A DNA stretch of 64,000 nucleotides from Candidatus Peregrinibacteria bacterium (GCA_016934215.1 JAFGTE010000033.1:8781-72780); one strand, 5' to 3'; counted from the stretch's first letter, positions 15,436-60,829 are shown. The notes: generated by a model not told the origin, from the sequence alone. Program-made: numbers and translations.

Positions 15436-15499
15436 ATTCTGATGCGCCATATTGGCGCCATATTGGCGCCAAAGTGGCGCCACTTTGGCGCATCAGAAT
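15436..15499. promoter_or_regulatory. Operator-like array of five TG(G/C)CGCCA palindromic boxes at about 11-bp spacing, enclosed by a 14-bp inverted repeat.
   Basis: ATTCTGATGCGCCA (15436-15449) is the reverse complement of TGGCGCATCAGAAT (15486-15499). Inside lie the tandem ATATTGGCGCC x2 (15449-15470) and the perfect 16-bp palindrome AAAGTGGCGCCACTTT (15471-15486). Confidence 0.5.
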
Positions 15500-18758: not shown

Positions 18759-18850
18759 GGTGTGATCTTTAGGAAATAAGAGCTTAATCAGTTTACTCCT
18801 TTTCCAAAATCGAATAAAATACTTCTCCTGATGTTAAGACTAAGGACTAA

Positions 18851-19300
18851 GTGAAAAGTGTATTTCAGATCATCGGCAGTCTTCTGATTATTTCGCTACT
18901 AATAGCGCACTTTTTCTTAATTGCTCTTTTAGTGGCACCTACCAATAAGCTACTTGGCTTGCTTATTGAAAATGATCAGGGCTTTGTCTCGGTTACAGAA
19001 ATTTCTGAAGCAGTACAAAGTTTTTTGGTTGATAACAAAGTGAGTGTTAATGGCGATTATCAGTTAAATCAAAGCAATAAAGGAAGATTTATTTTTGGGA
19101 TTCTTCAACTGCGCCGCAAATATTTTATGGAACCTACGGAACAGATTGCCTTGGATGCGAATTTACTCAATTATGGCGGAGGCCTTATTGGTGTTGAATC
19201 GGCTTCAGAGTATTTTTATGGTAAATCACTTTCAGAAATTTCTGATCGGGAGTGGATCACACTGGTGAATTTAAACAGTATCTTCTCAAAAAATAATTAG
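18851..19300 (+). CDS. Membrane-anchored protein resembling the C-terminal part of a GT51 peptidoglycan glycosyltransferase domain; probably degenerate.
   Basis: It has an N-terminal TM segment. LNYGGGLIGVESASEYFYGKSLSEISDREWITLVNL resembles the GT51 motif YLN..YfG.g.yGv..Aa..YFgK....L...E.a.L. The catalytic EDxxFxxHxG and GGSTITQQ motifs are absent. Confidence 0.4.
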   Translation: MKSVFQIIGSLLIISLLIAHFFLIALLVAPTNKLLGLLIENDQGFVSVTEISEAVQSFLVDNKVSVNGDYQLNQSNKGRFIFGILQLRRKYFMEPTEQIALDANLLNYGGGLIGVESASEYFYGKSLSEISDREWITLVNLNSIFSKNN

Positions 19301-23733: not shown

Positions 23734-23788
23734 ATAATAAAAAATAAGGATATATCGTCCTTAGTCCTTACTATCTAGTCTTACTATT

Positions 23789-27706
<3,918 letters not shown>

Positions 27707-27763
27707 AGCCATTCTTAGGGCTAAGTAGTAAGGACTAAGAGAGATTTTAATTTCAATCCAATT

Positions 27764-29015: not shown

Positions 29016-29044
29016 TTGCTGAGAAGAGCTAAATATGCTAAAAT
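29016..29044 (+). promoter_or_regulatory. Sigma70-like promoter candidate for the SLH-domain gene.
   Basis: TTGCTG (29016-21), a 17-nt spacer and TAAAAT (29039-44) lie about 27 nt upstream of the ATG at 29071. Confidence 0.4.
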
Positions 29045-29070
29045 TTCATCGCAAAAATAAAAAAACAAAC

Positions 29071-30132
29071 ATGCAAACAAAGAAGCGATTAAGTTTTTAT
29101 ATAAAAGGCGTTAGTTCTGTGACTCTGGCGCTGTTTTTGATGCTGAATTTCGTATCTCCTGTTCTGGCTCAGACAGTTGGAACTACTTCTTCCGGAACGC
29201 AGCTTGTGAGTACCGGTTTTAGTGATGTGAACCGCACTCATCCTAATTACACGGCGATTACTTATCTTAGTCAGAAGGGCGTTATTGGAGGATATGCCGA
29301 CGGTACTTTTAAACCTGATAATGCTATTAATCGGGCTGAGGTACTTAAAATCATTTTAAGCGGATCCGGAATCGAAACGGATGAAGCTTTTGGCGCTCAT
29401 TTTCCGGATGTAACTGAAGGTGATTGGTTTGCCCCTTACGTCATGAAGGCGCGGGCTATAGGTTTTGTGAAAGGGAATGATGCGGATGGTACATTTACCC
29501 CGGGGAGACAGGTGAATATGGCAGAATTCTTAAAAATGCTTCTGGTGGCTAATGGTATTGATGTATCAGCTTTTGAGGGCAAACAGGTAGCCTCCAACAT
29601 TCCTCTGGATGCCTGGTACGCTAATTATGTGAACTATGCCGTAGCGCTTGGTATTGCGCCGCGTGACAGCAAAGGTAATGTCGATGCCGCTAAACTTCTG
29701 ACCCGTGGGGAAGTCGTGGATATGATGTATCTGCTTTCCATTATTCAGAATGGCAGTGATACTCAGTTTCTGCTCACCCGGGCAGAATCTGAAATGGCCC
29801 AAATCGAAGTTTATATTGCGGCCAATATGGTGGCGCATGCCAAAAATGCTTCAGACTTGGCAGTGGATCTGACCCAGCAGGCTTACAAAAATATGCCTAC
29901 GAATAATGTTGTTCTCGGTGCCGCTAAAATTGCCCGTGCTTATGACTGGCTCGTGGATTCCTTTATTCTGGGGATTCAGGGGGATAATGAAGGGGCCGCA
30001 AAAGTCGCGAACGATGCCATTGATAAAGCGACGGAAGCCTGGGAAGCCAATAACGCGACTCAACCTATTGCCAAGCATATTAAAGACCGGGCCCGGGAGA
30101 TTTTGCAGCAGGTTGGTGGGGTGGAGACTTAA
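29071..30132 (+). CDS. Secreted protein with three S-layer-homology (SLH) domains and a helical C-terminal region.
   Basis: The signal peptide is MQTKKRLSFYIKGVSSVTLALFLMLNFVSPVLAQ. SLH repeats are FSDV..HPNYTAITYLSQKGVIGGYADGTFKPDNAINRAEVLKII, FPDV..DWFAPYVMKARAIGFVKGN.DGTFTPGRQVNMAEFLKML and DAWYANYVNYAVALGI...LLTRGEVVDMMY. I chose the ATG at 29071 over the track start. Confidence 0.8.
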   Translation: MQTKKRLSFYIKGVSSVTLALFLMLNFVSPVLAQTVGTTSSGTQLVSTGFSDVNRTHPNYTAITYLSQKGVIGGYADGTFKPDNAINRAEVLKIILSGSGIETDEAFGAHFPDVTEGDWFAPYVMKARAIGFVKGNDADGTFTPGRQVNMAEFLKMLLVANGIDVSAFEGKQVASNIPLDAWYANYVNYAVALGIAPRDSKGNVDAAKLLTRGEVVDMMYLLSIIQNGSDTQFLLTRAESEMAQIEVYIAANMVAHAKNASDLAVDLTQQAYKNMPTNNVVLGAAKIARAYDWLVDSFILGIQGDNEGAAKVANDAIDKATEAWEANNATQPIAKHIKDRAREILQQVGGVET

Positions 30133-30134
30133 GT

Positions 30135-32228
30135 CTAAGTACCAATCGCAATCCAGTTAAAACTTTCACCGTTGTTACTTGAATCAACGGTTATGGTGAA
30201 TTGAGTAGTGGTTGTATTTGAAATATGATACCAAGTGTCGTTGTTACCGATTGTATCGGAACTATTCGGAGTAACTACCACAACAGGCGGACTGGTGAAA
30301 GTTTTATTAAAGGCTGTTGTTACGGAGTTGCCCGCTGTATTGGCAGTAGTTCCGTAGTCGATTACAGGTACACCAGTAGCGATAGCTTCAAAGGCTCCTC
30401 CGTCATTGCTTAATACCCATTGATTACTTGCGGCATCATATCCAATGATGCCGTTATTATCGGAACCCTGATTTACGATAATACCAACGTTTGCTCCGGG
30501 GCCGGTGTTATCATAATCAAGTGTAATAATGGTTCCATTAGTAAAGATATTGTCAGTGAATCCAAAAGCTGCGTTTGAGCTATCCCAGCCGAATAAATGA
30601 TCTGTTCCGTCATCAAAAGTAATATAGGAAAGTGCGGCGTTTCCATTGCCGATTTCCATTACCGCTCCTGTTCTTTCGATATCTATCGGGGCTGTTGCTG
30701 AAGCAATGCCGATACCGATGTTACCGGATGCGTCGATACTCCAATCGTTACTTGCCACAATAAAATCGTTGGTGCCGGTGTTGATTGTGAAGGCGCCATT
30801 GCCTGTAGTAAGGGTTTTGTCCACGTCGGTTGTATAAACACCCTCGAAATCCGAAGAACCGCCACCACCTGAGGCCGTAATGTCTTCCCAGACACTTCCG
30901 CTCCAGATGTAGGTGTTGTTGTCACTCGTGTTGTGGTAGATTTGACCCGCGACCGGACTTCCGGGGGCTGAAGACGCATTGTGCAAAGCGACATCGCGGA
31001 TCTGATTCTGGCCAAAGCTCAGATCGTCTGAAATCTGAAACTGGTCATTTGTATCGTTCCAGGTCAGGTTTTCCCAGGTGTTGCTATTTCTGCCTAAGCT
31101 CAGGGTTCCGTCGCTGTCGGTAGCCGCGTGGTCGTCTGCGACGTAGGCTTGTCCAATAACTGCTAAGTTGCCTTCAGCCCTCAGAGCGTCTGTTAAGGTG
31201 AAACGGCTATTGGAAGAATCCCAGAAAAGAGTTTCAGCCAGAGCGGTTCCAAATTGTAAGGTTACGTTGCCTCCGGTATCATCGTTATCAAGGATGAATG
31301 TATTTGAATCAGTTCCGATGTCAGTGTTTTGGGTATGGTTTCCTTCGCCTCCGCCACCCCCTTCCACTCTGGAAATCACCAGTGCAGAACCGCCTGCCAA
31401 AGTAGCAATGTTGGAGCTACCACTACTGCGTTGGGCCTGTATTTTAAGTTTATCCCCGGCACTCAGGTCTAAAGTGAAACTGCGGCTTGCTGTGGCATCC
31501 CCCTGAGTCGCGGTTCGGTTATACATTTTTGCGATAGAGCCAGCAACAGCGGCATAGCCTGAACCGGTATCCAGCATCAGCCTGGCTTCTGATTCACTTC
31601 GGTTGGTGCCGGAGGTAATATCGGTTGTGACTGCGTAGTTTACATAATAGGTTCCGTCAGTATTTACGGTGATTTCAGCTGAACCGGTTGAATGAGTGAA
31701 GTCAGTCGTTTTCTTTCTTTCTGTTCCCAGGGGTATATCCGTGAAGCCTGCATCAATACTGGTTCCTCCCGTTGAATCGTAGGCATCAAAGTATTCTGCG
31801 GTTCCACTACTTCCTCCACTACCAAAAGTCGTGAAGGCACCCCCATCGTTGCTATATTCCCACTCGTTAGTTGTGGCATTGTAGCGAATGGTTCCGTCAT
31901 TGTCGGAACCCTGGTTGGCGATAATATTAACCGTATTACCCGCTCCTGCATTATCTGCGTCCAGTGTTATATTTAAACCGTTCTGGCTAAAACCTCCGTC
32001 TATCGTGAGATCATCACTCAGATCAAAATTGAGGGTTGAGCTGTTCCATCTCAGGTATTTCCCAAGTGAAGCGCCGAACTGAAGGGTCACATTGCCTCCG
32101 GTATCATCAGCGTCCAGAATAATCGTGTTGGAAGCATTTTCATCTTCGTCGCTTGGCACAAAGTCGGCCAGTGCAAGTTGTGGAAGCAGTAGGGTAATAC
32201 CTGCGATGATGACGAGGAGTTTTTTCAT
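30135..32228 (-). CDS. Large secreted repeat protein A, a member of the TLQFG / NQNQIK / GQIYHNT module family.
   Basis: The signal peptide is MKKLLVIIAGITLLLPQLALA. Modules include NTIILDADDTGGNVTLQFGASLGKYLRWNSS, NTFILDNDDTGGNVTLQFGTALAETLFWDSSNSRF and NDQFQISDDLSFGQNQIRDVALHN..PVAGQIYHNTSDNNTYIWSGSVWEDIT. Confidence 0.75.
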   Translation of the reverse strand: MKKLLVIIAGITLLLPQLALADFVPSDEDENASNTIILDADDTGGNVTLQFGASLGKYLRWNSSTLNFDLSDDLTIDGGFSQNGLNITLDADNAGAGNTVNIIANQGSDNDGTIRYNATTNEWEYSNDGGAFTTFGSGGSSGTAEYFDAYDSTGGTSIDAGFTDIPLGTERKKTTDFTHSTGSAEITVNTDGTYYVNYAVTTDITSGTNRSESEARLMLDTGSGYAAVAGSIAKMYNRTATQGDATASRSFTLDLSAGDKLKIQAQRSSGSSNIATLAGGSALVISRVEGGGGGEGNHTQNTDIGTDSNTFILDNDDTGGNVTLQFGTALAETLFWDSSNSRFTLTDALRAEGNLAVIGQAYVADDHAATDSDGTLSLGRNSNTWENLTWNDTNDQFQISDDLSFGQNQIRDVALHNASSAPGSPVAGQIYHNTSDNNTYIWSGSVWEDITASGGGGSSDFEGVYTTDVDKTLTTGNGAFTINTGTNDFIVASNDWSIDASGNIGIGIASATAPIDIERTGAVMEIGNGNAALSYITFDDGTDHLFGWDSSNAAFGFTDNIFTNGTIITLDYDNTGPGANVGIIVNQGSDNNGIIGYDAASNQWVLSNDGGAFEAIATGVPVIDYGTTANTAGNSVTTAFNKTFTSPPVVVVTPNSSDTIGNNDTWYHISNTTTTQFTITVDSSNNGESFNWIAIGT

Positions 32229-32231
32229 TTT

Positions 32232-34403
32232 TTATTGAAGTTTTTTACCGGTGTAATTAAGGCGTAGCATTAAGATATTGATGTCGTTTGTATAGGTGTT
32301 GGCTACGTTGCCGGCTTCGCGGCTGAGGCGAATATTTACCATATCATCAGCGTCCAGAGCGGCGGCAGGAATGGTAAACGTAAAACGAGTGAGTTCCAAA
32401 GCTGTTCCTGGGGCAGCCTGTGTTGAATTTAATGTAGTAGCTCCTGAAATCGTTTCGCCGTTGGCCCAGGACTGATAATCGAGTTCAAAATAAACGTTGC
32501 CGGCTGTGACATCTTCCGGGGACCAGAAAACTTCCACCTGCAAATCGGTGCCGCTTTGCCAGTCGTCCGGTATAGGAAATGAATATGACATCCGACTGTT
32601 CCCGCCAGCGTCGAAGTTCACAGCCGGAGAGGTGCCGCTATTTACAGTACCTGCTGCCGCCGAAGTTCTAACGGCTCCATTGATATCCAGCCACACATAT
32701 TTGGTGGCGGTGGCGTCGGTGTATATGGGGCCTTTCACTCCAAGTGAATCTTCAATAAAGACGTCATTACCATCCAGAGTAAATGCTGGATTCGTGATTG
32801 TTTCAGCACTCGCTCCGATTGTTAAATCGTCTATGATATTCAGGCTGTCTGTTAAGACAAAGGCACTTTCTGAATTGTCCCAGAAGAGACTTTCTGTTAA
32901 TGTTCCTCCAAATTGCAGTGTGATATCAGTTCCGTCTCCATCAGAATCAATGGTGAAAGTGTTTGATGTGGTCCCAACGTCGGTGTTCTGTTCGTGTGCT
33001 CCGGCACCAGTTCCACTACTACCCTGTATTCCGCGCAGATCAATAATACGCAATACGTCTGTGCCCCCTTCCTGCATAATCAAATGAGCAATTGGAAAGC
33101 CGACAGTGCCCCATGCGACTGGAACTCCATTGACAGCTACTTTGTCGGGATCTTCAATAGCTTGTTCAATCGAAGTATATTCAGCGGTTGGTGGATTAAG
33201 TTGTCTTTCCATATGTAAACCACCATAAATATCACCCCAAATAAATAGTTTGAAATATTTGTTGTTACCAATTGGGTCATTTCCTCCTGCGCCGTCATCA
33301 TAATTTGTTACATCCAGTACACCGTAAGTGTTGTAATACTGATCCAGCATTAAATCGGTACTTGCAGTGTTTTTAGCAGGGTAATCAATTTCTTGGTGAA
33401 TGTGCATGACTGAACCCGCAGAAATCTGCACTTCAAGTCCGGTATTGGTGAATTCAGTGCCGCTTAACCACAAAGTCTGATCTAATCTTAGTCGTCTGTT
33501 GACGTCGCGGATAAAGTTCCTGATAAAGTTCGTCAGGTTTTCAATATAATAGTAGGTGGCATCAGAAGCGCCAACGGTTCCCACCAAAACTTCAGCGATC
33601 GGTACCCAGTCAAAAGTTTGGGTATCAGGGTTAGTTGTGCTTGCTTCCACAATACCCCCATCTTTTACGTATACGTAGTTTAAGGTCGGGTTAGTATCGG
33701 TTCCTCCCGTTAAGGCAATTCCCGGACTGATATTGTTGTTGATTTCGTATTCTGTGTTTTCGATATTAGCTACAAAAAAAGTATCTTCTGGATTTTCATA
33801 CGTCAAATAAGCCACGTTGCTTATCACGTTTTCACCGAGTACTAAATTATTGTCGATGGTATTTCGGTTGATCTCGTCGCTTTGGGCTGCCAGGGTATTC
33901 AGTTCTACCACCTGAGTCCAGTCCATTAAGCCCTTTGTTGTTTCAGTCGCTAAAGGGATATCATCTTCTCCGTTAATGTGAGTTAAGGCATGATAGCCAA
34001 TGGGTTCCCAGCCGGTTGACGTGTACATGTAAGTCTGTTCGTCGGTGGTGTTGTAGTACACCTGTCCTTCCATGGGTGTGAGGGGTGCGGTAGCAAGATT
34101 GTCGATTGTAAAGTTTTTGATTTGGTTTTGGTTGAGGTTTAGATCGTTGCTGAAATCGAACCAATCATTGCTGGTGTCGAAGGTGATTGTTTCAGAAAGT
34201 GAGTTTCCAAATTGTAAACTGACATTTCCGGTAACGTCGCCCCCGGCGTCAATAATAAAAGTGTCACTTCCATTGTCTTCGATTAGAAATTCGCTTTTAA
34301 AAACAATTCGAGCGTAAACGGGGTTGATTCCTGTCAGGAGTATGATTCCGGATAGTAATAAGACAGTGCTTTTTCCAATGATTTTTTGGAAGTGTTTTAG
34401 CAT
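32232..34403 (-). CDS. Large secreted repeat protein B of the same module family.
   Basis: It has a signal peptide. Modules are DTFIIDAGGDVTGNVSLQFGNSLSETITFDTSNDWFDFSNDLNLNQNQIKNFTIDNLATAPLTPMEGQVYYNTTDEQTYMYTSTGWEPIG and NTFTIDSDGDGTDITLQFGGTLTESLFWDNSESAF. Only 3 nt separate it from protein A, so the two are likely an operon. Confidence 0.75.
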   Translation of the reverse strand: MLKHFQKIIGKSTVLLLSGIILLTGINPVYARIVFKSEFLIEDNGSDTFIIDAGGDVTGNVSLQFGNSLSETITFDTSNDWFDFSNDLNLNQNQIKNFTIDNLATAPLTPMEGQVYYNTTDEQTYMYTSTGWEPIGYHALTHINGEDDIPLATETTKGLMDWTQVVELNTLAAQSDEINRNTIDNNLVLGENVISNVAYLTYENPEDTFFVANIENTEYEINNNISPGIALTGGTDTNPTLNYVYVKDGGIVEASTTNPDTQTFDWVPIAEVLVGTVGASDATYYYIENLTNFIRNFIRDVNRRLRLDQTLWLSGTEFTNTGLEVQISAGSVMHIHQEIDYPAKNTASTDLMLDQYYNTYGVLDVTNYDDGAGGNDPIGNNKYFKLFIWGDIYGGLHMERQLNPPTAEYTSIEQAIEDPDKVAVNGVPVAWGTVGFPIAHLIMQEGGTDVLRIIDLRGIQGSSGTGAGAHEQNTDVGTTSNTFTIDSDGDGTDITLQFGGTLTESLFWDNSESAFVLTDSLNIIDDLTIGASAETITNPAFTLDGNDVFIEDSLGVKGPIYTDATATKYVWLDINGAVRTSAAAGTVNSGTSPAVNFDAGGNSRMSYSFPIPDDWQSGTDLQVEVFWSPEDVTAGNVYFELDYQSWANGETISGATTLNSTQAAPGTALELTRFTFTIPAAALDADDMVNIRLSREAGNVANTYTNDINILMLRLNYTGKKLQ

Positions 34404-34532
34404 CTATATAATTCCCTATATTTTAGCATAATTTGACTTATTTTTCAATGGATTGTGGTTTTTGATACCTCCTTGTCCGCCCCACCATATGGCAGGGCGG
34501 GCAGAAGGCGTTTGTGCCAATTTTGGATTTAT

Positions 34533-34549
34533 TAACTATCACCAACATC
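34533..34549. repeat. Left arm of a perfect 17-bp inverted repeat bracketing gene 34557-36848.
   Basis: TAACTATCACCAACATC lies 8 nt beyond the stop codon. Its reverse complement is at 36996-37012. Confidence 0.8.
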
Positions 34550-34556
34550 TGCAGGA

Positions 34557-36848
34557 TTACTTGGTATAAGCCCAATCAATCCATGCCATGTCGGCCCAGT
34601 CAGCCGCACCAGTATCGTCCAGAAGCTTGATCTGGAACTCGATCTGGTCATCGGCGCTAAGACCCGCACAGCCAGCATTGATGGTGGCGGCTGGAATGTT
34701 TTGAGTTGCCCAGACGTTGGCCGAGTTGTTGTCATTGTCCGTAAAACAGGTGGCGGCATCGGTCACGTTGTACATGATAACTTCAACATCGTTAGAAGCG
34801 GCGGTGGTGGTACCTGTTCGGAATCTGAAATCAACGTCACCTGTGGCGTTAAAATCTTCTGGAACAAAAACCGTGAAGCGGATATCGATGTCCTGCTGAT
34901 TACCATTATTGGTCGTCCATTCGTAGTAACCGCTGTCTTCACCGGTGTCATAGAAGGATTCCAGAGTACCCTTATTATTGGTCCCATCGGCGTGTACGAC
35001 GGCATTTTGATATTCCGGATAGAAAGTCAGGATCTCGTAGTTGGCACCGTATAGGTCGCCGGCAATCTCCTGAATGGCACCTTCAACGTCGGTGGCTGTC
35101 AGGTAGGCGCCCGCGTCTTCGATTCCGACTAATGACGCGCCTTCTCCGTTGGCCGTGGAAGCCAGGTCGCCCCATTTTAGATCAAGCTTGTTTAAAGCGG
35201 TGTAAACAGGGTCGTTGTCAGCGAGTACGTTGTCTTCTGTGAAATTGAAGGTATTGCTGGTCGTTGAACCGAACAAAGTTTCGATTTCATTCAAAGCGGC
35301 TTCTATTTCAGCTCCTGTGAACCAAGCGGAGGCATCTTCAATGCCAACATTACTTGCACCATTACCATTGGTAGTAAGGGCAAATGAGTTGATGTTGTCG
35401 ACAATACCATCTTCATTAAAGGTGGGATTCCAGTCGGTGGTTGCCGGGTTGCTGGTTAACTGAACGATTCCCGTTAGCTGAGCGTCGTCAAAAATGACAT
35501 CATCACCGGCGTTGATAGAGATATCGCTGGTTCCGGTGGTCGTGATATCCGAATCAGCCGCGCCCTGAAAACTGAGAGCGCCTGCGGCGTCAACAGTGAT
35601 ACCGCCGGCTGTGGCATTTAAGTCAATGGCGTCAGTTCCGGTACCGGATGAATTCAAGACAACGCTTGAATCGGTGGCTCCTGTTACGGCGATCGTCAGA
35701 TCATCGCCCGCTCCGTCGGAAGCGACAGTAAAGTCAGACGCGTCAGCGGCGCCGATATGAACAGCGGTTGTTGAATCCAGATTAAAAGCGCCTGTAGCGT
35801 CCCAATCGACGATCAGAGAGTTGATGTCGATGGTATTACCACCGCTATCCAGAAAGTCAATCAATGAGGTTCCGCCGCTGTTTTCAAGTGAAAACAGGGT
35901 ATCACCGTTAGCGTTGGCAATAATTTCGAAAGGATTACTTCCGCCGGCTGCCAGACTGATTTCATGAGCACCTGCTCCGTCCTGATCGTAAGCTGACTGC
36001 AAGTCAACGGTGGCTGCGGGAGCAGAGCTCGCCCACGTACCTGGATTACCTACTCCGGTACAAATGTAGATCAAGTTCTCAGTTGTATCGAGTACGATTT
36101 CATCCAGATTTGTACAAGCTGCGGTTGCTTCGTCAGTGACTTCACGAATGTGAAATTCGCTTGAACCCTGAAATTGCAGAGCGCCAGTTGTTCTTAAATC
36201 GGCATCCGTGAAATCAAAAGAATCACCGGGTGCGGAAAGGGTGACCTTTTCATTGTTTGGATCGTAGCTGATCACAGCGTCTGTACCATCATTGCCTAAC
36301 TGAATCTCAACCGTGTCACCGAGCACGCCACCGGTTAAGTTGGCGCCTGTGGCGGTAAGTGTGCCTGCAGTAGAGGTATCTCCAGCGGTGGTTGTGAAGT
36401 TGTTAGCGGGGTCTGCCACTTCAGCGGTAACAGTAATGGTGTTCGCACTATAGGCAGCGTCTATAATGTGGCCTACCGTGTAGTTGTTATTGATAGCAGC
36501 CGTTAAACCTTGCAGTACAGCAGCTGTGTCAGCGGTATCGCCACCGGCACAATCTGTGGTGGTGGCTGTGTATACAACAGCGGTGCCGTTAATGGTGGCG
36601 GTAAAGGTTTCGCCAGCCACACAAGCGGCGTCAACCATGGTATAGGTTCCGGTTGATAGAGTTCCGTCAACCATATTGTCATTCTGATCTAGAATAATGC
36701 CCTCTGATTCGATGTTGAACCACTCATCATCTTCGAAGAGGATACGCGCGTTGGCTGCACCGGCGGTTGTGATAACCAGTGTAATGGCCAGCAAGGAGCC
36801 GGTTATGCGTTTAACCCACTTCGTGAATTTTGGGTTATGTGTATTCAT
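34557..36848 (-). CDS. Large secreted Thr/Ala/Gly/Asp-rich repeat protein C. Its C-terminal domain is shared with protein D, and the gene is bracketed by the 17-bp inverted repeat.
   Basis: The signal peptide is ...SLLAITLVITTAGAANA. The C-terminal block FYPEYQNAVVHADGTNNKGTLESFYD...YYEWTTNNGNQQDIDIRFTVFVPEDF parallels FHVEYEDTTIQGDGTNNRGLLSSYF...YYEWTTRRSTMQDVDIILSFRLPEDF in protein D. G+C is visibly higher than in its neighbours. Confidence 0.75.
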   Translation of the reverse strand: MNTHNPKFTKWVKRITGSLLAITLVITTAGAANARILFEDDEWFNIESEGIILDQNDNMVDGTLSTGTYTMVDAACVAGETFTATINGTAVVYTATTTDCAGGDTADTAAVLQGLTAAINNNYTVGHIIDAAYSANTITVTAEVADPANNFTTTAGDTSTAGTLTATGANLTGGVLGDTVEIQLGNDGTDAVISYDPNNEKVTLSAPGDSFDFTDADLRTTGALQFQGSSEFHIREVTDEATAACTNLDEIVLDTTENLIYICTGVGNPGTWASSAPAATVDLQSAYDQDGAGAHEISLAAGGSNPFEIIANANGDTLFSLENSGGTSLIDFLDSGGNTIDINSLIVDWDATGAFNLDSTTAVHIGAADASDFTVASDGAGDDLTIAVTGATDSSVVLNSSGTGTDAIDLNATAGGITVDAAGALSFQGAADSDITTTGTSDISINAGDDVIFDDAQLTGIVQLTSNPATTDWNPTFNEDGIVDNINSFALTTNGNGASNVGIEDASAWFTGAEIEAALNEIETLFGSTTSNTFNFTEDNVLADNDPVYTALNKLDLKWGDLASTANGEGASLVGIEDAGAYLTATDVEGAIQEIAGDLYGANYEILTFYPEYQNAVVHADGTNNKGTLESFYDTGEDSGYYEWTTNNGNQQDIDIRFTVFVPEDFNATGDVDFRFRTGTTTAASNDVEVIMYNVTDAATCFTDNDNNSANVWATQNIPAATINAGCAGLSADDQIEFQIKLLDDTGAADWADMAWIDWAYTK

Positions 36849-36995
36849 TTTATGAATTTTAGTTATTAATATCTGAGCCCTTTGGAGGGGATAGGCTCAC
36901 TTCCCCGTTAGACCTCATTGGCGTAAGGCCCCACTCCTTCCACTGCAAACCACTGTTATTGTGTTTCCCCCGTTTGGGGTCTGCAGAGGGAGAAG

Positions 36996-37012
36996 GATGT
37001 TGGTGATAGTTA
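36996..37012. repeat. Right arm of the perfect 17-bp inverted repeat.
   Basis: GATGTTGGTGATAGTTA lies 148 nt upstream of the ATG at 36848 and 168 nt downstream of the stop of gene D. Confidence 0.8.
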
Positions 37013-37179
37013 TTCGATCACATAGGCGTGTTGGTTAGTTAGTAATTTGTTTGAGTCTTCTTATGGACTCGATGGTGATTCCGATGCTAGAGTGATCGTG
37101 ACTTTGTTCACTGGTCTGCCGTTCCAATGAAAGTCCTCTAGATCAGAATCACCATTCAGTCCACAATGGTGAATTTGGT

Positions 37180-40100
37180 TTAAGTGCCGTTATAGTTAAA
37201 TATCACGTCGGAAACGCGAGTGTATCCGGTACTGGTTGTTTGCGGTTTGATGACAAGCGTTACGACATCTCCCGCATTAAAGGTGGGTGAACCGCCAAAG
37301 GTAATGCTGGCGGTCGTCCAGGTGGCGTTGGCTAAATCGGTTCCGCCAGTAAGTGAAACAGCGGTACCCGTTGTGTCGTACAGTGTAATATCAATCTGGT
37401 TGGTAGTCAGTACTCCATTACTGGTCTGGTACAGAATGGTAAGCGGTGTACTGGTAAAGCTCTGGAAATCTTCAGGAAGTCTAAATGACAAAATAATATC
37501 CACGTCCTGCATGGTGCTTCTTCTGGTGGTCCATTCGTAATAGTTGTATTTGCTCGTTCCGCCGGCATCGGCAAAATATGAACTGAGTAAGCCCCGATTG
37601 TTAGTGCCGTCTCCCTGAATGGTGGTGTCTTCATATTCCACATGGAAGACGGCCGTCTTTCCTTCCAGGCCGCCAAGCTGAATCCAGCCGGTGTTGGTTG
37701 AGTTTCCGGAATTTTTTATGTAAGCATTTCCGTTGCCGCTGTCTACAAGCAAATCACCGACTGAGCCTGTAATGGCACCTTCCGGGCTGGAGTCACTGCG
37801 AAAGAACTGAATATCACCACCAGTGTTTTCCAGAGTCGCGATAGCAGCAGTATTGGCTGCATTGGAATCGATGTGAAAAACACTGATAGGGTTTGTGTTG
37901 CCAATGCCGACCGAACCACCGTCGGTGAATATGACAAACGGCGTGCCGGCATCCTGCACCACGAAATCCCCGGTGCTCTGCAAATCCACCACAATATCAC
38001 CGGCCACACTTGATTCAAATTCAAGCCCACTGGCATTATTCACGGCCATTTTTTTATCGGCGTCTGCTCCATATACTCCATCCAGGTCGTCGACTCCGGT
38101 GGCTCCGGCTGTAATGTCATCCCAGCTCGCACCGTTCCACACGTAAGTATTTCCGTCTGCGGTGTTGTGATAAATCTGGCCTGCTACTGGTGCAAGTGGT
38201 GCCACTGCCAGATTATCAATGGCTACGTTTTTGATCTGATTCTGATTGAAATTGACATCATTACTGAAAGAAAACCAGTCATTCGTGATGTCGAAAGAAA
38301 GAAATTCGGCGAGTGTGGCACCAAAGAACAAATCAATTGTGCTACCAGCCCCTACCGTGTCGTCTGAATCGATGGTCCAGGAGTCAGCATTAGTTCCTCC
38401 CGGAATGTAGTTGATATTCCAAAGTCCTCCAATGCCCAGAGTAGCAATGTCTCCGGCTCCTGTGCCGACTTCTGCATTGTCAATAAAGTCCGCGTTGTTG
38501 GTATATGGCACTGAGCCTACAGTCTGTCGGTCATCCGTATCAGTACCGTTATCACCCGTTGGATCCATCACTTCATAAGCGGTGTCGGCAGCCCCTGTAA
38601 CCTTGATTTCCACCATCAGGTGTGTATGGGTGCTGAGCAGCATATTCGGCAAAGGTACGCCGCTGCCCAATTCCACAAAAAAGGTTCCGTCTGTGTTTGG
38701 CGTCAGCGTATGAGTCTCGAACCACCCGCCATAATTGGGCGCTGCTCCGTTAATGGCACCGACGCCATCAATATCCCCGGCTACTAAATCATCAGAATTC
38801 CATAAAGAAAACCGGAAGGTCTGCGAGGTGGTAATCGGATTATTGGAGCTGTCCAAAAGCTTTCCTTCGTACACAAACACAGTCGGTGTGGTTACCGCGG
38901 CAAAAGCTATCTGCTGGATCAGCATTGTGATAACCAGTGAAACTGACAACAGACTTCTTACTTTGAATTCACTCTTTCGTTTGTTTGACTTGCATGATTG
39001 TCCGATGGCGAAGATAAGAAGAATGCTCAAAAGCACCCAGATATTTTTTGAATCTTCAGATGCTTCGATGTTGAAGATATAGCGCTTGTTTCGCTGCACC
39101 TTTCCATCTTCGTATACCTGCACGATGTGCATCAGATAGCTTCCGTCTTTTAATTTCTCCGGAATTTCAAGTTTGTAGTCACCGTACGCATCAGCCTGGG
39201 TGCTTATGTGGGTGATGTCACTGACTCTGCTCCGCTGTTTTTCAATTGGCTGAATGTAGGCGTGATATTTTGTATTTGGTTTGCCGTTACCGGTAAAATT
39301 GCTCAGTTCTTCCACAGAGCCCAGACAAATATATTCACGGCTGATTTCGCCGTTTATAGCCAGATTATCGTGCAGTCGGTACTTACGGTCTTCAATGGTA
39401 ATCGTCCAATTTTTGTAAATTGCTCGGTTCTGATCGAATAGAGCGATGCCATAAGTCTTGTATTCCAGGAATGGAACACTTTCCATCATCAGCACACCTT
39501 CGGCGGTGCTCTTTACCCCCTGTCTGGTCACCGCATTTCCGTTTTCATCAAAGATGACCATTTCGTAGACAGTGTTCGGTTTAGCCTGAGTGACTAGGAA
39601 CGGCGTTTCATCCAGTACAGTAATTAGCTGACCTTTCTGGTATTGGCTGAAGTGATAGTCATAATAAGATAGTTTTTCTTCCAGCACTTCTTCTGTCGGA
39701 GCGGCGGGTTTCAGACCGGGTTCTTCGAGGCTGACCTCTTCCGGAGCGGCGGGTTTCAGACCGGGTTCTTCCAGTGCTTTAATTACAAATGCAAGGTCGG
39801 GATTGAATTCGGGTTCAAAAATCAGCTGTGATTCTTCTTCCGATTTTTCTTCCGGAGGGATTTCTTCCCCAGTTTCTATGGTGCAGAGTGGTGTACATCC
39901 ATCTTCGTAGTCTACGTTTCCGTCGTCACATTGTTCGCCGATTTCTTTGATTCCGTTGCCACAATGATGATCTTCAATCCGGCAACCTTTCGAACAGCCG
40001 TCGCCGTTAAGTAAGTTGCCATCATCACATTGTTCACCGGCTTCCCGTTTGCCGTTTCCGCAAGTAAATGTGTCACTGCCTCCGGGGCTGGTGTTGAAAC

Positions 40101-40470
40101 AGCTGGTGGTGACAATCTGGCAATTGACGCATTGCAGATTGCCGCTATTAAAACCATAACTGCTACAAGTGAGCCCATTGAAATCCGTTCCCTCACACTG
40201 TTCACCGGTTTCGATGATTCCGTTTCCGCATGTTGGGCCAACAACGGCAGGACTTGCGTAAACGTTGCGCAAATTGTAGCTGGCGGAACTGCCATCAGCG
40301 CTTATATCTGAAATGGAATCTGTGAGATTGTAGCTGGAACTTGTCTTTTGGTCTGAGTCGCTGATGAACCTGGCATAGTCGAGCCGGTAACTAGCACTGG
40401 TGCTGCTTTCGGCCAGGGCTCCTGGAGCCATTAAAATACCCAGAAGCACTAACATGAAAACAATACTCAT
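37180..40470 (-). CDS. Giant composite surface protein D. It has a signal peptide, three Myxococcus-type Cys-rich repeats, a proline-rich duplicated linker, a mid-protein TM segment, a second signal-like segment, the module-family region and the shared C-terminal domain.
   Basis: The ATG at 40470 gives [20 protein letters not shown]; the track's GTG at 40620 is an alternative start. Cys-rich repeats are [41 protein letters not shown] and [27 protein letters not shown]. The family module reads [79 protein letters not shown]. Confidence 0.75.
   Translation of the reverse strand: [1096 protein letters not shown]
39697..39771. repeat. Tandem duplication with a 45-bp period inside gene D.
   Basis: CGGAGCGGCGGGTTTCAGACCGGGTTCTTC occurs at 39697-39726 and again at 39742-39771. 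It encodes [10 protein letters not shown] twice. Confidence 0.9.
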
Positions 40471-40847
40471 GCGCGCGCGCGTATAAGAAAACAAGCCGGA
40501 TTTCAAAATACGCAAAAACCAGGCTACGTGGCCTTCGTTTTTTTCAAGCAGATTGGATTTTTGTTTGGGTTTTAAGGCAAACCCATTCCCGGCAGATGTA
40601 TAGGGTTCGGCAGATAACACGTTGGCAATTAGTGTTTGTTTTTATTTTCGTGACGGCAGTTCACGACGGCAGGCAAATAAAGGTTGATTTAGGTTTTTTC
40701 TACTTGTTTATTTGATTGATTTTTTAGAAATAAATCTTTATATTATAGCAGAAATAAAAGGCAAAGTCGAGGAAGGTACCTTGTCATAAGACAATATATG
40801 TTTTTTGCTTTTATATTGCATGAATCATAAAATATGGTCTGGTATTC

Positions 40848-44124: not shown

Positions 44125-44164
44125 TTTATAAATGTTTGAAATAACAATAAAATCTAAGATAAAT

Positions 44165-47100
44165 ATGAAAACTATAAAGTCATTATTTATTATTCCATTT
44201 CTAGCTCTTCTGTTTTTATTTCCGCAAGTTGGTTATGCAGTTAATGAAGTATGTTATGCAGGTCAGGATGGCTGTCCTGATCCGCCAGATTCTTCAAAAT
44301 GTGTACCTCCTCCAGTACTACTTTTGGGTTGTCCACCAGGGACTGTTTGGATTGGAAATGCTTCCACTGGTCAATGTTCCCCTGCAGTTACTTGTTCTGC
44401 GGGAGTGGATAGATTCTATTGTGAAACGGGTAGTTGCTGGACGCAGCCCACAGCCGGGCCGCCTCCACCACCAGCTGCCTGTACCACTGCCAATGTGACC
44501 ACTGGGTCCGCAAATGCCTGTTGTACGGACGGTCAGATTGTTGTAAGGAACGGTACAAGCAATACCTGGGAATGTGCTGATCTTACGCCGGGACTTTGGT
44601 CCGAAACAGGAGTCAATGATATCTATTTTGATGGTGGAAATGTGGGAGTTGGAACAGATGCACCTCTTTCAAAATTCCATGTGGATGGTCAACTCAGAAT
44701 TTCGAATGCTGCAAATAGTGCCAATTATCTGACTATTGGACATGGTGGTACTCATTCCTATTTTAATAATGAAGGAGTAGGTAATATTGAACTTAGAATA
44801 GGGGGGAATACTAAATTAGCAGTTGAACCTGATGGAAGTGTAATTTCCGATGAATATTGTTTGGGTACCGATTGTATTACTGAATGGCCTAGTGGTGGCC
44901 TTTGGTCTGAGAGCACTGATCCCGGAAGTATTTATTATAATGACGGTAATGTGGGAATTGGCACCAATATTCCGGCTTATGAACTAGATGTTGCTGGGGA
45001 CGCAAATGCGACCCGGTTATGTATTAATGGTGATTGTAAACCTGCCTGGCCTACTTATACAGGTGCTGATTTATGGGAAGAAAATTGGGGTCATGTTTAC
45101 AGGCCCACAGGTCATGTTGCTGTAGGACTTCCTACTACTACTACTCCTGGCGGGGTGTTGCAGGTGGCAACGGATGTCCCTGTTGTAATAAATAATTGTG
45201 AGTCTTCTTTTCTTATCGGTACCTGTACCGGCCCTCATGTTGAGATGGACTCCAATTCACTTCAGGCAAAAGCAACTAATGTTACCGTTGCTACTTTGAA
45301 TCTTCAGGAATTGGGGGGTAATTTGCAAGTCGATGGCAGTACGCTGGTGGTGGATGGCACCAATAACAAAGTGGGTATTGGTACCACTTCTCCGGCCGGG
45401 GCATTACATATTGCAACCTACCAGGAAGCTGATCTTACAAATGCGGAAGCGTCCTTTATGATAGGGCCGACTACAAGTTACCATCTTGAAATGGATTCGA
45501 ATGATATTCAGGGTAAGGCGGATACCGTGCATGCCGGTACACTCAATTTACAGGCGGATGGCGGAAGTTTAGATGTTGGCAATAACAACAATCTTTTTGT
45601 TGAAACGGCTACCAGCAGAGTCGGTATTAATACTGATGATCCTGCTTATGCTTTGCATGTCATAGGGCAGGTAAATGGAAGCACAGGGCTTTGTATAGCT
45701 GGTGTTTGCAGAACCACCTGGCCTGAAAGTAGTACCAGTCTATGGACTGAGAATGGTTCAAATATCTATAGGAGTGGCGGTGGTAATGTGGGGATTGACG
45801 ATACGGTTCCGTTGGCAACATTAAGTGTTGTCGGTCAGGTACGCGCTTCTGACCTGGCTGATGAAGCCGAGTATATAGAAATAGATCACGGGGGTGCCAA
45901 TGCTCTTATAAATTGGGCTGGTGACGGCAATCTGGATTTCAGAAGAACCGGTACCACTTTAATGACTTTGGAGCAGGATGGTGATCTGGGAATTGGTGAT
46001 ACGACACCGGATGCAAAACTTGATGTTGAAGGTGGTATTAGAGCGCATAGTATTTATGGCGAAAATAACGATACTTTCGATATTACATCGGCTGATAACT
46101 ACTTTATTGATTTAGAGTCCAATGATGATACTTACGGGCTTATTATAAGGGAAAGTACCGTACAAAATGGTGACGCAACTGCGGATTATTTAAACATTGA
46201 GCCAAAAGATACTTATACTGGATTTGGCGCTTCTCAATCTGGTGCAGATTTGCTGCTTTATGAAGATGGTAAGCTCGAAATTGTGAATGGACCTGATAAT
46301 AACGGTAGTACGGCTTCTTTGGTGGTAGGGGATGGTTCAAATACGCTTTACATGGATGGAAATGAAATAGACAGTGACGGGTCGTTGTATTTGCAACATA
46401 ATAGCAGCGGAAATGTTTATATCGATGGCGGTGGTAAGGTTACGATTGGGACTGCTACTCCTGCTGCTTCAACTTCATTAACAATAGTTACTCCAACCAG
46501 CAGTGAATTATACTATACAGGTATCGATGTTAGTTCACCGTCTAATGGGGTTGGTATTATCGGCAGATCTACGGGCAATACGGGTGTTATGGGTACAACT
46601 GATTACGGCGTTGGTGTTATTGGTATGGCTACACATGGTAATGGTATGGAGGCACAAGGTGGTTATGCAGGGATTATGGCAGGCGGTGATACCGCTGGTG
46701 GTATTTTCCAAAGCGGAGCTACTAGTGCCTATATCGCTTATGCTGGTTATGTTGTAGATGGTAATGGTGATATTCGTGCAAGTGGCAGTATACTTCCTGG
46801 TTCAAGTAAAATATACACAACTAACGGTGATCTGGTTTTTGAACCGAATAGTGAATCTGCTGATCGTTTTTATGTTTCGAATGAAGGTCAAATGGTATTG
46901 GTCGGCACTAATGGAATTTGGCTGGCCAGCGCCAGTTATGCCGGTAAGATTGGGGGCGGAACCTGGACGAATAGCTCTGATGCAAGGTTAAAAGATGTGC
47001 ATGGTGCTTATGAAAAGGGCTTGGCAGATATTCTTGGGCTGAAGCCGGTCACTTTTAATTATAAGAAGGATAACCCAAAAGGTCTTCCTTCCAATGACGA

Positions 47101-47314
47101 ATATATTGGTTTTATTGCTCAGGATGTGGAACCGATTTTCCCGGAGGCGATCAGTACGGATGATGACGGATATTTACAGTTTGATATGCATTCAATTAAT
47201 GTTGCCGCTATCAATGCAATCAAACAGCTAAAAGCTGAAAAGGACGCTGAAATTGCTGAACTCAAGGCAGTAGTTTGCGAACTTAAACCGGAGGCGGAAG
47301 TTTGTAATAAATAA
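44165..47314 (+). CDS. Tail-fibre-like secreted protein with a C-terminal peptidase-S74 (endosialidase intramolecular chaperone) domain.
   Basis: The signal peptide is MKTIKSLFIIPFLALLFLFPQVGYA. The N-terminus is Cys/Pro-rich. It carries repeated LW(S/T)E...IYY.DGNVGIGT..P...L.V.G units and repeated C(I/L)xGxCxxxWP units. The C-terminus reads SSDARLKDVHGAYEKGLADILGLKPVTFNYKKD...YIGFIAQDVEPIFPEAIS...INAIKQLKAEKDAEIAELKA. Confidence 0.8.
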   Translation: MKTIKSLFIIPFLALLFLFPQVGYAVNEVCYAGQDGCPDPPDSSKCVPPPVLLLGCPPGTVWIGNASTGQCSPAVTCSAGVDRFYCETGSCWTQPTAGPPPPPAACTTANVTTGSANACCTDGQIVVRNGTSNTWECADLTPGLWSETGVNDIYFDGGNVGVGTDAPLSKFHVDGQLRISNAANSANYLTIGHGGTHSYFNNEGVGNIELRIGGNTKLAVEPDGSVISDEYCLGTDCITEWPSGGLWSESTDPGSIYYNDGNVGIGTNIPAYELDVAGDANATRLCINGDCKPAWPTYTGADLWEENWGHVYRPTGHVAVGLPTTTTPGGVLQVATDVPVVINNCESSFLIGTCTGPHVEMDSNSLQAKATNVTVATLNLQELGGNLQVDGSTLVVDGTNNKVGIGTTSPAGALHIATYQEADLTNAEASFMIGPTTSYHLEMDSNDIQGKADTVHAGTLNLQADGGSLDVGNNNNLFVETATSRVGINTDDPAYALHVIGQVNGSTGLCIAGVCRTTWPESSTSLWTENGSNIYRSGGGNVGIDDTVPLATLSVVGQVRASDLADEAEYIEIDHGGANALINWAGDGNLDFRRTGTTLMTLEQDGDLGIGDTTPDAKLDVEGGIRAHSIYGENNDTFDITSADNYFIDLESNDDTYGLIIRESTVQNGDATADYLNIEPKDTYTGFGASQSGADLLLYEDGKLEIVNGPDNNGSTASLVVGDGSNTLYMDGNEIDSDGSLYLQHNSSGNVYIDGGGKVTIGTATPAASTSLTIVTPTSSELYYTGIDVSSPSNGVGIIGRSTGNTGVMGTTDYGVGVIGMATHGNGMEAQGGYAGIMAGGDTAGGIFQSGATSAYIAYAGYVVDGNGDIRASGSILPGSSKIYTTNGDLVFEPNSESADRFYVSNEGQMVLVGTNGIWLASASYAGKIGGGTWTNSSDARLKDVHGAYEKGLADILGLKPVTFNYKKDNPKGLPSNDEYIGFIAQDVEPIFPEAISTDDDGYLQFDMHSINVAAINAIKQLKAEKDAEIAELKAVVCELKPEAEVCNK

Positions 47315-49666: not shown

Positions 49667-49756
49667 ATTGTAAAGTTTATTTAGACCAATGTTCTGCTAC
49701 GCCACGGCGCACTTTAGCGCGGCAAACAAGTCTCATACAATTAGCAACCCTCTCCT

Positions 49757-50086
49757 ATGGCTGAAAAAAAGAAGGAAAGTACCCAGCGCATTCGCATCAC
49801 CCTCAAAGCTTTCGATCATACGATTATCGATAAAGCTGTTGAAACCATCATACAAACCGCGGAACGCACGGGGGCTATTGTGGCTGGGCCCATTCCGTTG
49901 CCTACCAAAATCAAGAAATTCACCATCAATCGTTCCACTTTCATTTCCAAAGATGCCCGTGAACAGTTTGAAATGAGAATTCACAAGCGGTTAATTGATT
50001 TGCGTGAGACTACCTCTGCCACCATTGAAGCGCTGACTAATCTTTCTTTGCCGGCCGGCGTGGATATTGAAATTAAGATGCTCTAA
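49757..50086 (+). CDS. rpsJ: 30S ribosomal protein S10.
   Basis: [41 protein letters not shown] matches S10. Confidence 0.95.
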
Positions 50087-50089
50087 TAG

Positions 50090-50123
50090 AAGGACTAAGT
50101 AGTAAGTAGTAAGGACTAAGTAG
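50090..50123. repeat. Left block of the GGACTAAGTAGTAAG-family repeat flanking the four-helix-bundle gene.
   Basis: The block is AAGGACTAAGTAGTAAGTAGTAAGGACTAAGTAG. Positions 50091-50106 pair with 50512-50527 over 16 bp, including one G-U. Confidence 0.8.
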
Positions 50124-50143
50124 AATTTAAGTGAATAATAAGT

Positions 50144-50494
50144 ATGAAATCGTTCAAAGAGGCTATTGTGTGGCAGAAGAGTTATAAACTCACTCTGTTC
50201 ATTTACCGAATAACTGCTCAGTTCCCAAGGGCTGAAGAATTTGGTTTAAAATCGCAGTTGCGTAGAGCTGCTGTGTCTCTGATATCTAATTTTGCAGAAG
50301 GGTTTAAGCGTATCAGCTATAAAGAGCGTATTCAGTATTACAAGATGTCTGAGGGTTCTTTGGAAGAGATAAAGTGTCAAACGGAGTTATGTAAGGATTT
50401 AGGTTATCTGAGTTTGAAGATTTATGGTCAATTGGAGGTGTTGGAAGAAGAAGTTGGTAGATTGCTATGGCGTTGGATAAGCGTTCAAAAATAG
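50144..50494 (+). CDS. Four-helix-bundle protein of the 23S rRNA intervening-sequence protein family.
   Basis: Family-typical sequence is present: AIVWQKSYKLTLFIYRITAQFPRAEEFGLKSQLRRAAVSLISNFAEGF.R.SYKE..QYY.MSEGSLEE. Confidence 0.85.
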   Translation: MKSFKEAIVWQKSYKLTLFIYRITAQFPRAEEFGLKSQLRRAAVSLISNFAEGFKRISYKERIQYYKMSEGSLEEIKCQTELCKDLGYLSLKIYGQLEVLEEEVGRLLWRWISVQK

Positions 50495-50527
50495 GTACTT
50501 ACTACTTAGTTCTTACTACTTAGTTCT
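50495..50527. repeat. Right (inverted) block of the same repeat family.
   Basis: The block is GTACTTACTACTTAGTTCTTACTACTTAGTTCT. Its reverse complement is AGAACTAAGTAGTAAGAACTAAGTAGTAAGTAC. Confidence 0.8.
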
Positions 50528-50566
50528 AATTCTGGACAATTCGTCCAAAAAAAGTCCATTTTTCCC

Positions 50567-53022: not shown

Positions 53023-53030
53023 GGAATAAA

Positions 53031-53073
53031 GACTAAGTAATAAGTACCATTTGTTAACTTAGTCCTTACTACT
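53031..53073. repeat. Hairpin-forming copy of the GACTAAGTA-family intergenic repeat between rplB and rpsS.
   Basis: GACTAAGT (53031-38) pairs with ACTTAGTC (53057-64). The flanking sequences AATAAGTAC and CTTACTACT are repeat-family sequence. Confidence 0.7.
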
Positions 53074-53087
53074 AACATATTGTTGTT

Positions 53088-59440: not shown

Positions 59441-59451
59441 TTATTTGAGAC

Positions 59452-60759: not shown

Positions 60760-60829
60760 TAATAAGTAGCGAAGACTCAATATTAAGTATTTATTTGATT
60801 CTGCACTATTACTACTTAGTCCTAATTAA

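Follow-up and report, generated by a model that had tools for sequence, protein, structure and literature searches.

The window analysed here, 64,000 nucleotides (nt) of one contig of a Candidatus Peregrinibacteria bacterium (GCA_016934215.1 JAFGTE010000033.1:8781-72780), carries an exact 17-bp inverted repeat around one gene and its leader. The gene encodes a predicted secreted or surface protein of 763 amino acids (aa). We consider, with moderate confidence, that the two arms of the repeat are the core of a long-range RNA helix within one transcript, which would tie the start of the 5' untranslated region (5' UTR) of the 763-aa mRNA to the first nucleotides past its stop codon. Neither a DNA flip-switch nor a mobile cassette fits the data nearly as well as an RNA stem joining the two mRNA ends. 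All three had been offered by an earlier sequence-only reading of the window, and the comparative data favour the RNA helix and extend it from 17 bp to about 27-30 bp in three segments. The coordinates of the features are collected in Table 1.

Both copies of the repeat were found where the sequence-only reading had placed them. TAACTATCACCAACATC has a single copy on the + strand (34533-34549) and a single copy, as the exact reverse complement, on the - strand (36996-37012), and no further copy with up to 2 mismatches is present in the window. The only long open reading frame (ORF) between the arms is that of the 763-aa protein. On the mRNA strand, the spacer between the 5' arm and the ATG is 147 nt long, and that between the stop codon and the 3' arm is 7 nt. 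A second, independent Logan assembly of the same organism (L001) has the identical arrangement of arms and gene. The estimate that chance would give well below one such match was borne out, as shuffled windows yield 0.133 non-overlapping inverted 17-mer pairs with no limit on their distance, and 0.007 when the limit is 3 kb. Two occur in the real window, the gene-bracketing pair and one from an unrelated dispersed repeat. A search of IMG/VR with the 16-mer CAACATCCTTCTCCCT returned 18 matches, which were rejected as true relatives and taken as chance matches because their flanks are unrelated.

The pair is conserved over a large evolutionary distance. Homologues of the 763-aa protein led to 11 further syntenic or related loci. 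Scans of genome and metagenome contigs gave only 4 distant loci (L002, L007, L008 and L009). The window and eight syntenic loci from different samples, all metagenomes (L003-L006 and L010-L013), form the canonical set of nine. The orthologous proteins of these eight share 54-70% identity with that of the window, and identity at third codon positions is 37-57% (about 43%), with synonymous sites near saturation. The neighbourhood is the same, with a gene of DUF4215 repeats upstream and an SLH-domain gene and rpsG nearby, and both arms are retained in all eight loci, as is the orientation of the DUF4215 gene upstream. In eight of the nine loci the 3' arm reads GATGTTGGTGATAGTT, and L012 differs from it by one base. 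This arm begins 5-8 nt past the stop codon in 9/9 loci, ahead of a GC-rich hairpin. The 5' arm keeps a 16-nt core in all nine. L004 and L005 share a C>T change in it, which gives G.U in the sense RNA, and L010 and L011 each have a 1-nt insertion of their own, which would form a bulge. The invariant CCUUCUCCCU directly abuts the 5' arm with no spacer. Among the more distant loci, L007, L008 and L014 have neither arms nor leader.

Complementarity goes on past the 17-mer. Duplex and full-length folds gave a total of about 27-30 bp in three segments, namely H1, the arm pair of 16-17 bp, and outside it H2 (3-8 bp) and H3 (3-5 bp), with internal loops between them. The 5' strands of H2 and H3 lie in a block of the pattern A[U/C/A]GCC-UAUGU-[A/G]A[A/U]CGAAU, which is nearly invariant in the alignments, and the 3' UTR after the arm follows the pattern U[U/A]CUCGUUU-AAACAAUU-GGCAU. 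H2 pairs (A/G)A(A/U)CGA with UCGUUU. It is contiguous over 8 bp in L005 (AAACGAAU with AUUCGUUU), and it is substituted by AAGAA with UUCUU in L011 and by GA with UC in L010. H3 is AUGCC with GGCAU in most loci, compensatory AAGCC with GGCUU in L003, and includes a U.G wobble in L012; in the window and L010 it is reduced to 3 bp. Over the 27 pairs of the helix model, which was derived from and tested on the same sequences, 91.9% of the cells pair, compared with 23-52% when the partners are slid. H2 and H3 together include three pairs changed on both sides, a number reached by 3 of 500 shuffles. In the more diverged L015 (44% identity) the canonical arm is missing, and CUAUGUAAC of its conserved 5' block is complementary over 9 bp to GUUACAUAG, which lies 10 nt past the stop codon; 52 of 20000 shuffles were as good (p about 0.003).

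Folding agreed with this pattern. Minimum-energy folds of the full mRNAs (2.1-2.9 kb) showed arm-arm closure in 9/9 loci, with 11-16 of the 16 bp formed and stacked on P1, the first helix of the leader, and cofolds of the two UTRs closed in 9/9 loci as well. We used cofolding and full-length folding, since RNAduplex on whole UTRs ignores intramolecular folding and was uninformative.

The 147 nt between the 5' arm and the ATG form a structured leader, of which P1 begins directly after the arm. Three of its helices, P1, P2 and P3, are supported. The RNAalifold consensus of the leader has 26 pairs, 12 of them compensatory. In a model-fitted alignment, which is biased toward the model by construction, 95.6% of the cells are paired, 10 of 19 pairs are compensatory with changes on both sides, and one U.G pair is invariant. 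Slid partners pair at 28-54%, and none of 500 shuffles reached any of these measures. The pseudoknot possible at P4 was judged by eye, and the alignment register shifts there between loci. A covariance model (R1), built on the 5' block, the arm and P1-P3, detects the leader in 12 loci, including one metagenome-assembled genome labelled Gracilibacteria; outside its seed it matches L009 with 81 bits and L002 with 43 bits.

Between the upstream stop codon and the 5' block stands a long hairpin of 38 pairs, with 14 compensatory pairs across loci and several G.U pairs on the - strand. Its free energy is -53.5 kcal/mol (z = -7.7). It is present in eight of the nine canonical loci (missing in L012) and in L009, and missing in L015. 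Judged from their covariation, the leader and the long hairpin are true sense-strand RNA structures. The long hairpin may be an RNase III site or a 3' stabiliser. An integron attC-like nature of this hairpin was considered and rejected, as it has no core-site motifs, a fixed synteny and RNA-type covariation. Its 5' strand (37137-37155) also has a 19-nt match, 89% complementary, in the early 763-aa coding region (36675-36693); this match was reported for this organism only, and the leading inverted repeats listed for the other loci do not include it. At the other end of the message, the GC-rich hairpin past the 3' arm is found at the same position in 9/9 loci with a different stem sequence in each. 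Rfam 15 at gathering threshold gave only two tRNAs in the whole window. With E up to 10, the region 34350-37250 gave two matches only, both far below gathering scores, and nothing for the stalk, the leader or the long hairpin.

The apical loop of leader helix P3 (GCCAAU; 36915-36925, -) is complementary to AUUGGC of the 3' UTR (34515-34520, -) in 12 of the 12 loci having a 3' UTR, arm-less ones included. In L016 the match is a shifted one of 7 nt, GCGCCAA with UUGGCGC. Each single match is weak (p about 0.01-0.07 per locus). This loop may make a second contact with the 3' UTR, competing with H3.

The start regions of the window genes are A/U-rich, and a Shine-Dalgarno-like motif was found in 0 of 27 confidently placed genes. 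For this reason GGAAGGAG, the 3' strand of P1, is unusual in this genome. We dropped the idea that it serves as a stabilising ribosome-binding site or a Shine-Dalgarno motif, with the 5' arm mimicking an anti-Shine-Dalgarno, as none of these 27 genes uses such a motif; no 16S sequence is present in the window. An upstream ORF in the leader was also dropped, because the ATG of GCCAATG reads ATA in several loci.

The limits of the transcript were considered from promoter motifs. The sigma-70-type promoter of the next gene, TTGAWA-17-TAAAAT, has a conserved position in 8 of 11 loci. A promoter before the DUF4215 gene was found in 3/3 cases. L001 and L006 share the motif of the window there, and that of L003 is similar. 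By a consensus scan, which could pass over a non-consensus promoter, there is no sigma-70-type promoter within the 170-370 nt upstream of the bracketed gene in 10 of 11 loci. A promoter within or just before the 5' arm is not favoured, as TATGTA and TATCAC are without the conserved final T and there is no conserved -35 element; in L015, the 3' UTR is the pairing partner of the CTATGTAA stretch. Because no promoter is recognisable at the gene, and the upstream stop codon is only 30-45 nt from the 5' block in L012 and L015, sequence comparison suggests a two-gene transcript with the bracketed gene as distal cistron. Its first gene is probably the 1146-aa DUF4215 gene.

We infer the following course of events. 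Both arms would be transcribed, the bracketed gene together with the DUF4215 gene from the promoter of the latter, and the helix would form in the cell. H1 would be stacked directly on P1; the 2.3-kb coding region would therefore become one arm of a junction, with both mRNA ends held double-stranded. Excision of the message from its bicistronic precursor would take place in one of three spots, namely the stalk, the unpaired and conserved CUAUGU, or the long hairpin. The two messages might be separated by a double-strand nuclease of the RNase III type or by a single-strand cut in the CUAUGU loop, with the long hairpin possibly involved. RNase III itself could be the nuclease; no rnc gene was seen in the window. 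The distal mRNA would keep paired, nuclease-resistant ends that stabilise it, which would suit a probably abundant surface protein. Stalk cleavage, as in rRNA by RNase III, and end protection only, as in hbs mRNA, are indistinguishable by the present sequence data. A more ambitious picture is a dedicated conserved RNA device in a Shine-Dalgarno-less lineage of the candidate phyla radiation, in which an rRNA-like stalk frees the mRNA of one abundant surface protein from a two-gene precursor and afterwards keeps its 5' and 3' ends together, stacked on a structured leader whose GCCAAU loop can contact AUUGGC of the 3' UTR. We offer this picture only tentatively, as a possibility with less than even chances.

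Several points weigh against the RNA-helix reading, among them the common source of the helix model and its test, and the thin evidence for H2 and H3. Across the nine loci there is no compensatory double change in the 16 core pairs, whereas the neighbouring helices covary at the same divergence. Wobble pairs in the long-range helix (7 G.U against 9 A.C cells) carry no strand signal, and the strand assignment by this way was given up as uninformative. A C>A change of the 5' arm in L012 faces the changed 3' base and leaves an A.C mismatch. Instead of forming H3, its GGC could pair with the P3 loop or be part of a small local hairpin, and the three pairings are mutually exclusive because all use the same GGC. 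The helix would span a translated ORF of 2.3 kb, so it must form after transcription, and terminating ribosomes would fray its inner end. In L002 and L016 (35% identity) the leader is retained along with the proximal half of the 5' arm (AACCAACAUCC), and no matching 3' arm was found. L009 keeps the same two parts, with AUUAUUA in place of AACUAUC in the distal half, and its 3' UTR is beyond the contig end. Part of the arm conservation therefore has another cause than pairing. The junction region (arm and P1) is probably also read sequence-specifically by some factor or an alternative partner, since the core is invariant without double change, the proximal half is kept without partner, there is no wobble signal and L012 has A.C.

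The main alternative is an invertible DNA segment, in which a site-specific recombinase would flip 34550-36995 and so switch the surface protein relative to the upstream operon promoter. It would account for a perfect 17-bp inverted repeat around one gene and its leader and for the invariance of the arms, which are conserved as recombinase sites are, and with the promoter apparently outside the bracket a flip would silence the gene. However, in all ten independent pairing loci (the nine canonical ones and L015, all as assemblies) the gene keeps one orientation with respect to the DUF4215 gene that precedes it, and no orientation variant was seen among them. The earlier remark that the window has no recombinase also held, as Pfam scans of 45 window ORFs, almost all of at least 150 aa, gave no recombinase or transposase family, and the genes called in those loci that were fetched by protein identity include no recombinase either. 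The 5' arm has a 1-nt insertion in each of two loci, and the arms are fixed within 3 nt of RNA landmarks, the stop codon and P1, which a DNA switch would not need. We regard inversion as quite improbable. The two arms might otherwise be opposed copies of one DNA-binding site for a regulator, such as DNA-looping operators, with no base pairing between them. That the core is invariant rather than covarying, and that the proximal 5' half-arm persists in loci without a 3' partner, would be expected of such sites. But the 16-mer has no internal dyad symmetry, the copies are 2.4 kb apart with one 5-8 nt past a stop codon and not at a promoter, and 1-nt insertions are tolerated within the site; nor would independent sites be expected to have locus-specific complementary flanks (L005, L011 and L003) or the re-pairing of L015. 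This explanation is unlikely.

The arms might also be the terminal inverted repeats of a horizontally acquired cargo cassette, as the sequence-only reading had proposed, or of a transposon remnant. That reading had pointed to the high GC content of the segment. Inverted termini around a single gene would suit this, and the segment is indeed richer (50.3% GC against 43.8% for the window). The excess is not specific to the bracketed unit, because the adjacent 1146-aa gene (47.8%; GC at third codon positions 49.8 against 50.9) and the 697-aa gene (47.4%) are similar; higher GC is a trait of the surface-gene cluster. The same neighbourhood is kept in relatives with near-saturated synonymous sites, the motif is single-copy in the window, no transposase family was found in the window ORFs, and no direct repeats as a target-site duplication are found outside the arms (GGATTTAT on one side, TCGATCAC on the other). 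The cassette is largely refuted by the conserved synteny and is very improbable. A chance match without function has nothing for it except that short inverted matches arise in any 64-kb sequence. With 0.007 pairs expected within 3 kb and the pair kept in eight further diverged loci, it is refuted by conservation, and its probability is negligible.

The 763-aa protein has an identical entry in NCBI, a hypothetical protein of Candidatus Peregrinibacteria bacterium (candidate phyla radiation). It has a hydrophobic signal-like segment at the N-terminus and no sequence match in Pfam, NCBIfam or PDB. Of its 68 homologues, the few with a source name are from bacteria of the candidate phyla radiation. 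The AlphaFold model is poor (predicted local distance difference test score, pLDDT, 60) and confident only in a C-terminal beta-sandwich, which resembles carbohydrate-binding modules, the Eph ligand-binding domain and MAM domains, a generic fold. The label of surface protein is reasonable and generic. Large extracellular proteins, partly cysteine-rich, are a noted feature of Peregrinibacteria (PMC4736985).

The window covers the conserved region rpoB-rpoC-rpsG ... fusA-tuf-S10-spc-secY-adk-map. A 12.7-kb block splits rpsG from fusA and contains the SLH-domain gene and four large genes on the - strand, encoding proteins of 1146 aa (DUF4215), 763 aa, 723 aa and 697 aa (BclA_C and H-lectin domains). 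The str operon is otherwise conserved with two insertions, one at 29035-40620 between rpsG and fusA (the SLH gene and the four large secreted-protein genes) and one at 44132-47314 between fusA and tuf, which encodes a 1060-aa protein with a Peptidase_S74 (endosialidase chaperone) domain.

Table 1. Positions of the RNA helix segments, leader, genes, promoters and repeats in the window.
Feature	Position	Strand	Description
H1 5' arm	36996..37012	-	mRNA strand UAACUAUCACCAACAUC; exact 17-mer; unpaired in local consensus fold
H1 3' arm	34533..34549	-	mRNA strand GAUGUUGGUGAUAGUUA; 7 nt past stop codon
Conserved 5' block	37013..37029	-	ACGCCUAUGUGAUCGAA; 5' strands of H3 (A[U/C/A]GCC) and H2, with unpaired conserved CUAUGU(A/G) between
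3' UTR stretch after arm	34514..34532	-	AAUAAAUCCAAAAUUGGCAC; 3' strands of H2 and H3; invariant AUUGGC complementary to P3 loop
Structured leader, 147 nt	36849..36995	-	P1-P4, then A/U-rich start region without Shine-Dalgarno motif
Leader P1	36988-36995 with 36934-36941	-	CUUCUCC pairs with GGAAGGAG
Leader P2	36942-36987	-	variable hairpin
Leader P3	36910-36932	-	hairpin with invariant apical loop GCCAAU
Leader P4	36872-36909	-	GGGG/CCCC hairpin, possible pseudoknot
Leader motif relatives	L002:5563-5667; L009:2149-2276		window counterpart 36849-37030 (-), including 5' block
Long hairpin, 106 nt	37061..37166	-	between upstream stop codon and 5' block; invariant apical CGGCAGA
GC-rich hairpin past 3' arm	34475..34502	-	terminator-like but no U tract
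Bracketed gene	34557..36848	-	763-aa predicted secreted/surface protein; family unassigned by sequence searches
Upstream gene	37180..40620	-	1146 aa, cysteine-rich acidic repeat (DUF4215); upstream and co-directional in every syntenic locus
Promoter of next gene	34420..34448	-	sigma-70-type, TTGAAA-17-TAAAAT; downstream limit of unit
Promoter before 1146-aa gene	40742..40770	-	sigma-70-type, TCGACT-17-TATAAT; candidate for two-gene transcript
AGGACTAAGTAGTAAG copies	18836-18858, 23760-23783, 27716-27739, 50091-50127, 50496-50529, 53029-53078, 60808-60823		dispersed repeat

Other repeats are also present in the window. The dispersed repeat AGGACTAAGTAGTAAG has 11 copies at up to 3 mismatches (0.24 expected), and inverted copies of it flank rpoC (23789-27706) and a four-helix gene of the '23S rRNA intervening sequence' family (PF05635; 50144-50494). 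A near-perfect palindrome of 64 nt at 15436-15499, with two 32-nt arms, 88% complementary and without spacer, lies about 150 nt upstream of a dprA-like gene (15646-16713). The two copies of a 43-nt inverted repeat (72% complementary), one close to where the S10 operon starts (49724-49766) and the other just before secY (59415-59457), lie at a distance of 9.6 kb and may match by chance.

In the more ambitious picture, this would be a base-paired 'closed-loop' bacterial mRNA, in which the terminating ribosome would be beside the leader and both ends would be protected. Among 5'-3' mRNA interactions it would then be the first that is conserved between diverged species, and its invariant junction would be read by a sequence-specific factor. 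If the RNA-helix reading itself is true, it provides a clean natural system to ask whether end-to-end closure or rRNA-style excision stabilises a highly expressed bacterial mRNA or boosts its translation. The pairing is kept in nine genomes with near-saturated synonymous sites, nucleotide-exact relative to the stop codon and the leader, in organisms with no Shine-Dalgarno use seen. With the stalk, the leader and the long hairpin, the little-studied Peregrinibacteria gain three conserved RNA elements that had not been described. A lesson for genome scanning is that an inverted repeat around a gene need not mean a DNA switch.

Among known systems, invertons and other phase-variable switches (fimS, hin/hix and the promoter inversions of Bacteroides) have short inverted repeats around a segment that controls a surface structure. 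The present repeat resembles them in that it flanks a segment, here with a perfect 17 bp. It differs in having no recombinase and no orientation polymorphism found, and in arms that are tied to RNA landmarks. Within the same window, the sequence-only reading had noted a similar bracketing of the four-helix gene at 50.1 kb. This gene (50091-50527 with its flanks) is indeed a single gene within inverted repeats, but the repeat belongs to a different family, the dispersed AGGACTAAGTAGTAAG, whose copies form no conserved unique pair and have no sequence relationship to the 17-mer.

Flavivirus genomes have conserved complementary stretches of about 10-18 nt near both RNA ends, which close the RNA into a loop. 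The present arms are similar to these cyclisation sequences in that the sequence is conserved rather than covarying and the RNA is long and translated. However, cyclisation serves replication in a eukaryotic RNA virus, and the two have no relation by descent.

The processing stalks of rRNA operons are cut by RNase III (PMC6582327). As in these stalks, the flanks of the present unit pair over kilobases in an imperfect helix with internal loops, there is a second long hairpin in the spacer, and the unit is probably inside a longer precursor. Taking a stalk as an imperfect flanking helix of about two helical turns or more, H1, H2 and H3 give 27 modelled pairs with internal loops, predicted in 9/9 full-length folds. 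RNase III usually needs roughly two helical turns. Unlike in rRNA stalks, the core has only 16-17 bp, about two turns are reached only with H2 and H3, the bracketed RNA is a translated mRNA, and its cleavage would be by analogy.

Few bacterial mRNAs are known in which the two ends make base-paired contact, namely hbs, icaR and RNAIII. In the Bacillus subtilis hbs mRNA, a 14-bp interaction of 5' UTR and 3' UTR protects the leader from endonuclease cleavage (PMC5737220). The present helix would also be intramolecular, of similar length and placed from 5' UTR to 3' UTR, and hbs is a highly expressed gene. The present helix is different in being kept across deeply diverged genomes, in spanning 2.3 kb instead of about 0.3 kb, in its onset 5-8 nt past the stop codon, and in its stacking on a multi-helix leader. 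In Staphylococcus aureus, the 3' UTR of icaR pairs with its 5' UTR and RNAIII has a 5'-3' pairing; the icaR duplex is an RNase III substrate, and the icaR 3' UTR pairs with the ribosome-binding site and represses translation (PMC7821165). Here, too, complementary segments are placed in the 5' UTR and the 3' UTR of what would be one mRNA. But unlike in icaR the arm is 147 nt upstream of the AUG, in an organism without seen Shine-Dalgarno use, and the pairing would likely act in stabilisation or processing rather than repress translation. The known kinds to which this helix would belong are RNase III stalks and intramolecular pairing between 5' UTR and 3' UTR, and what would be new is that it is longer, multi-segment and deeply conserved, and set on an undescribed structured leader.

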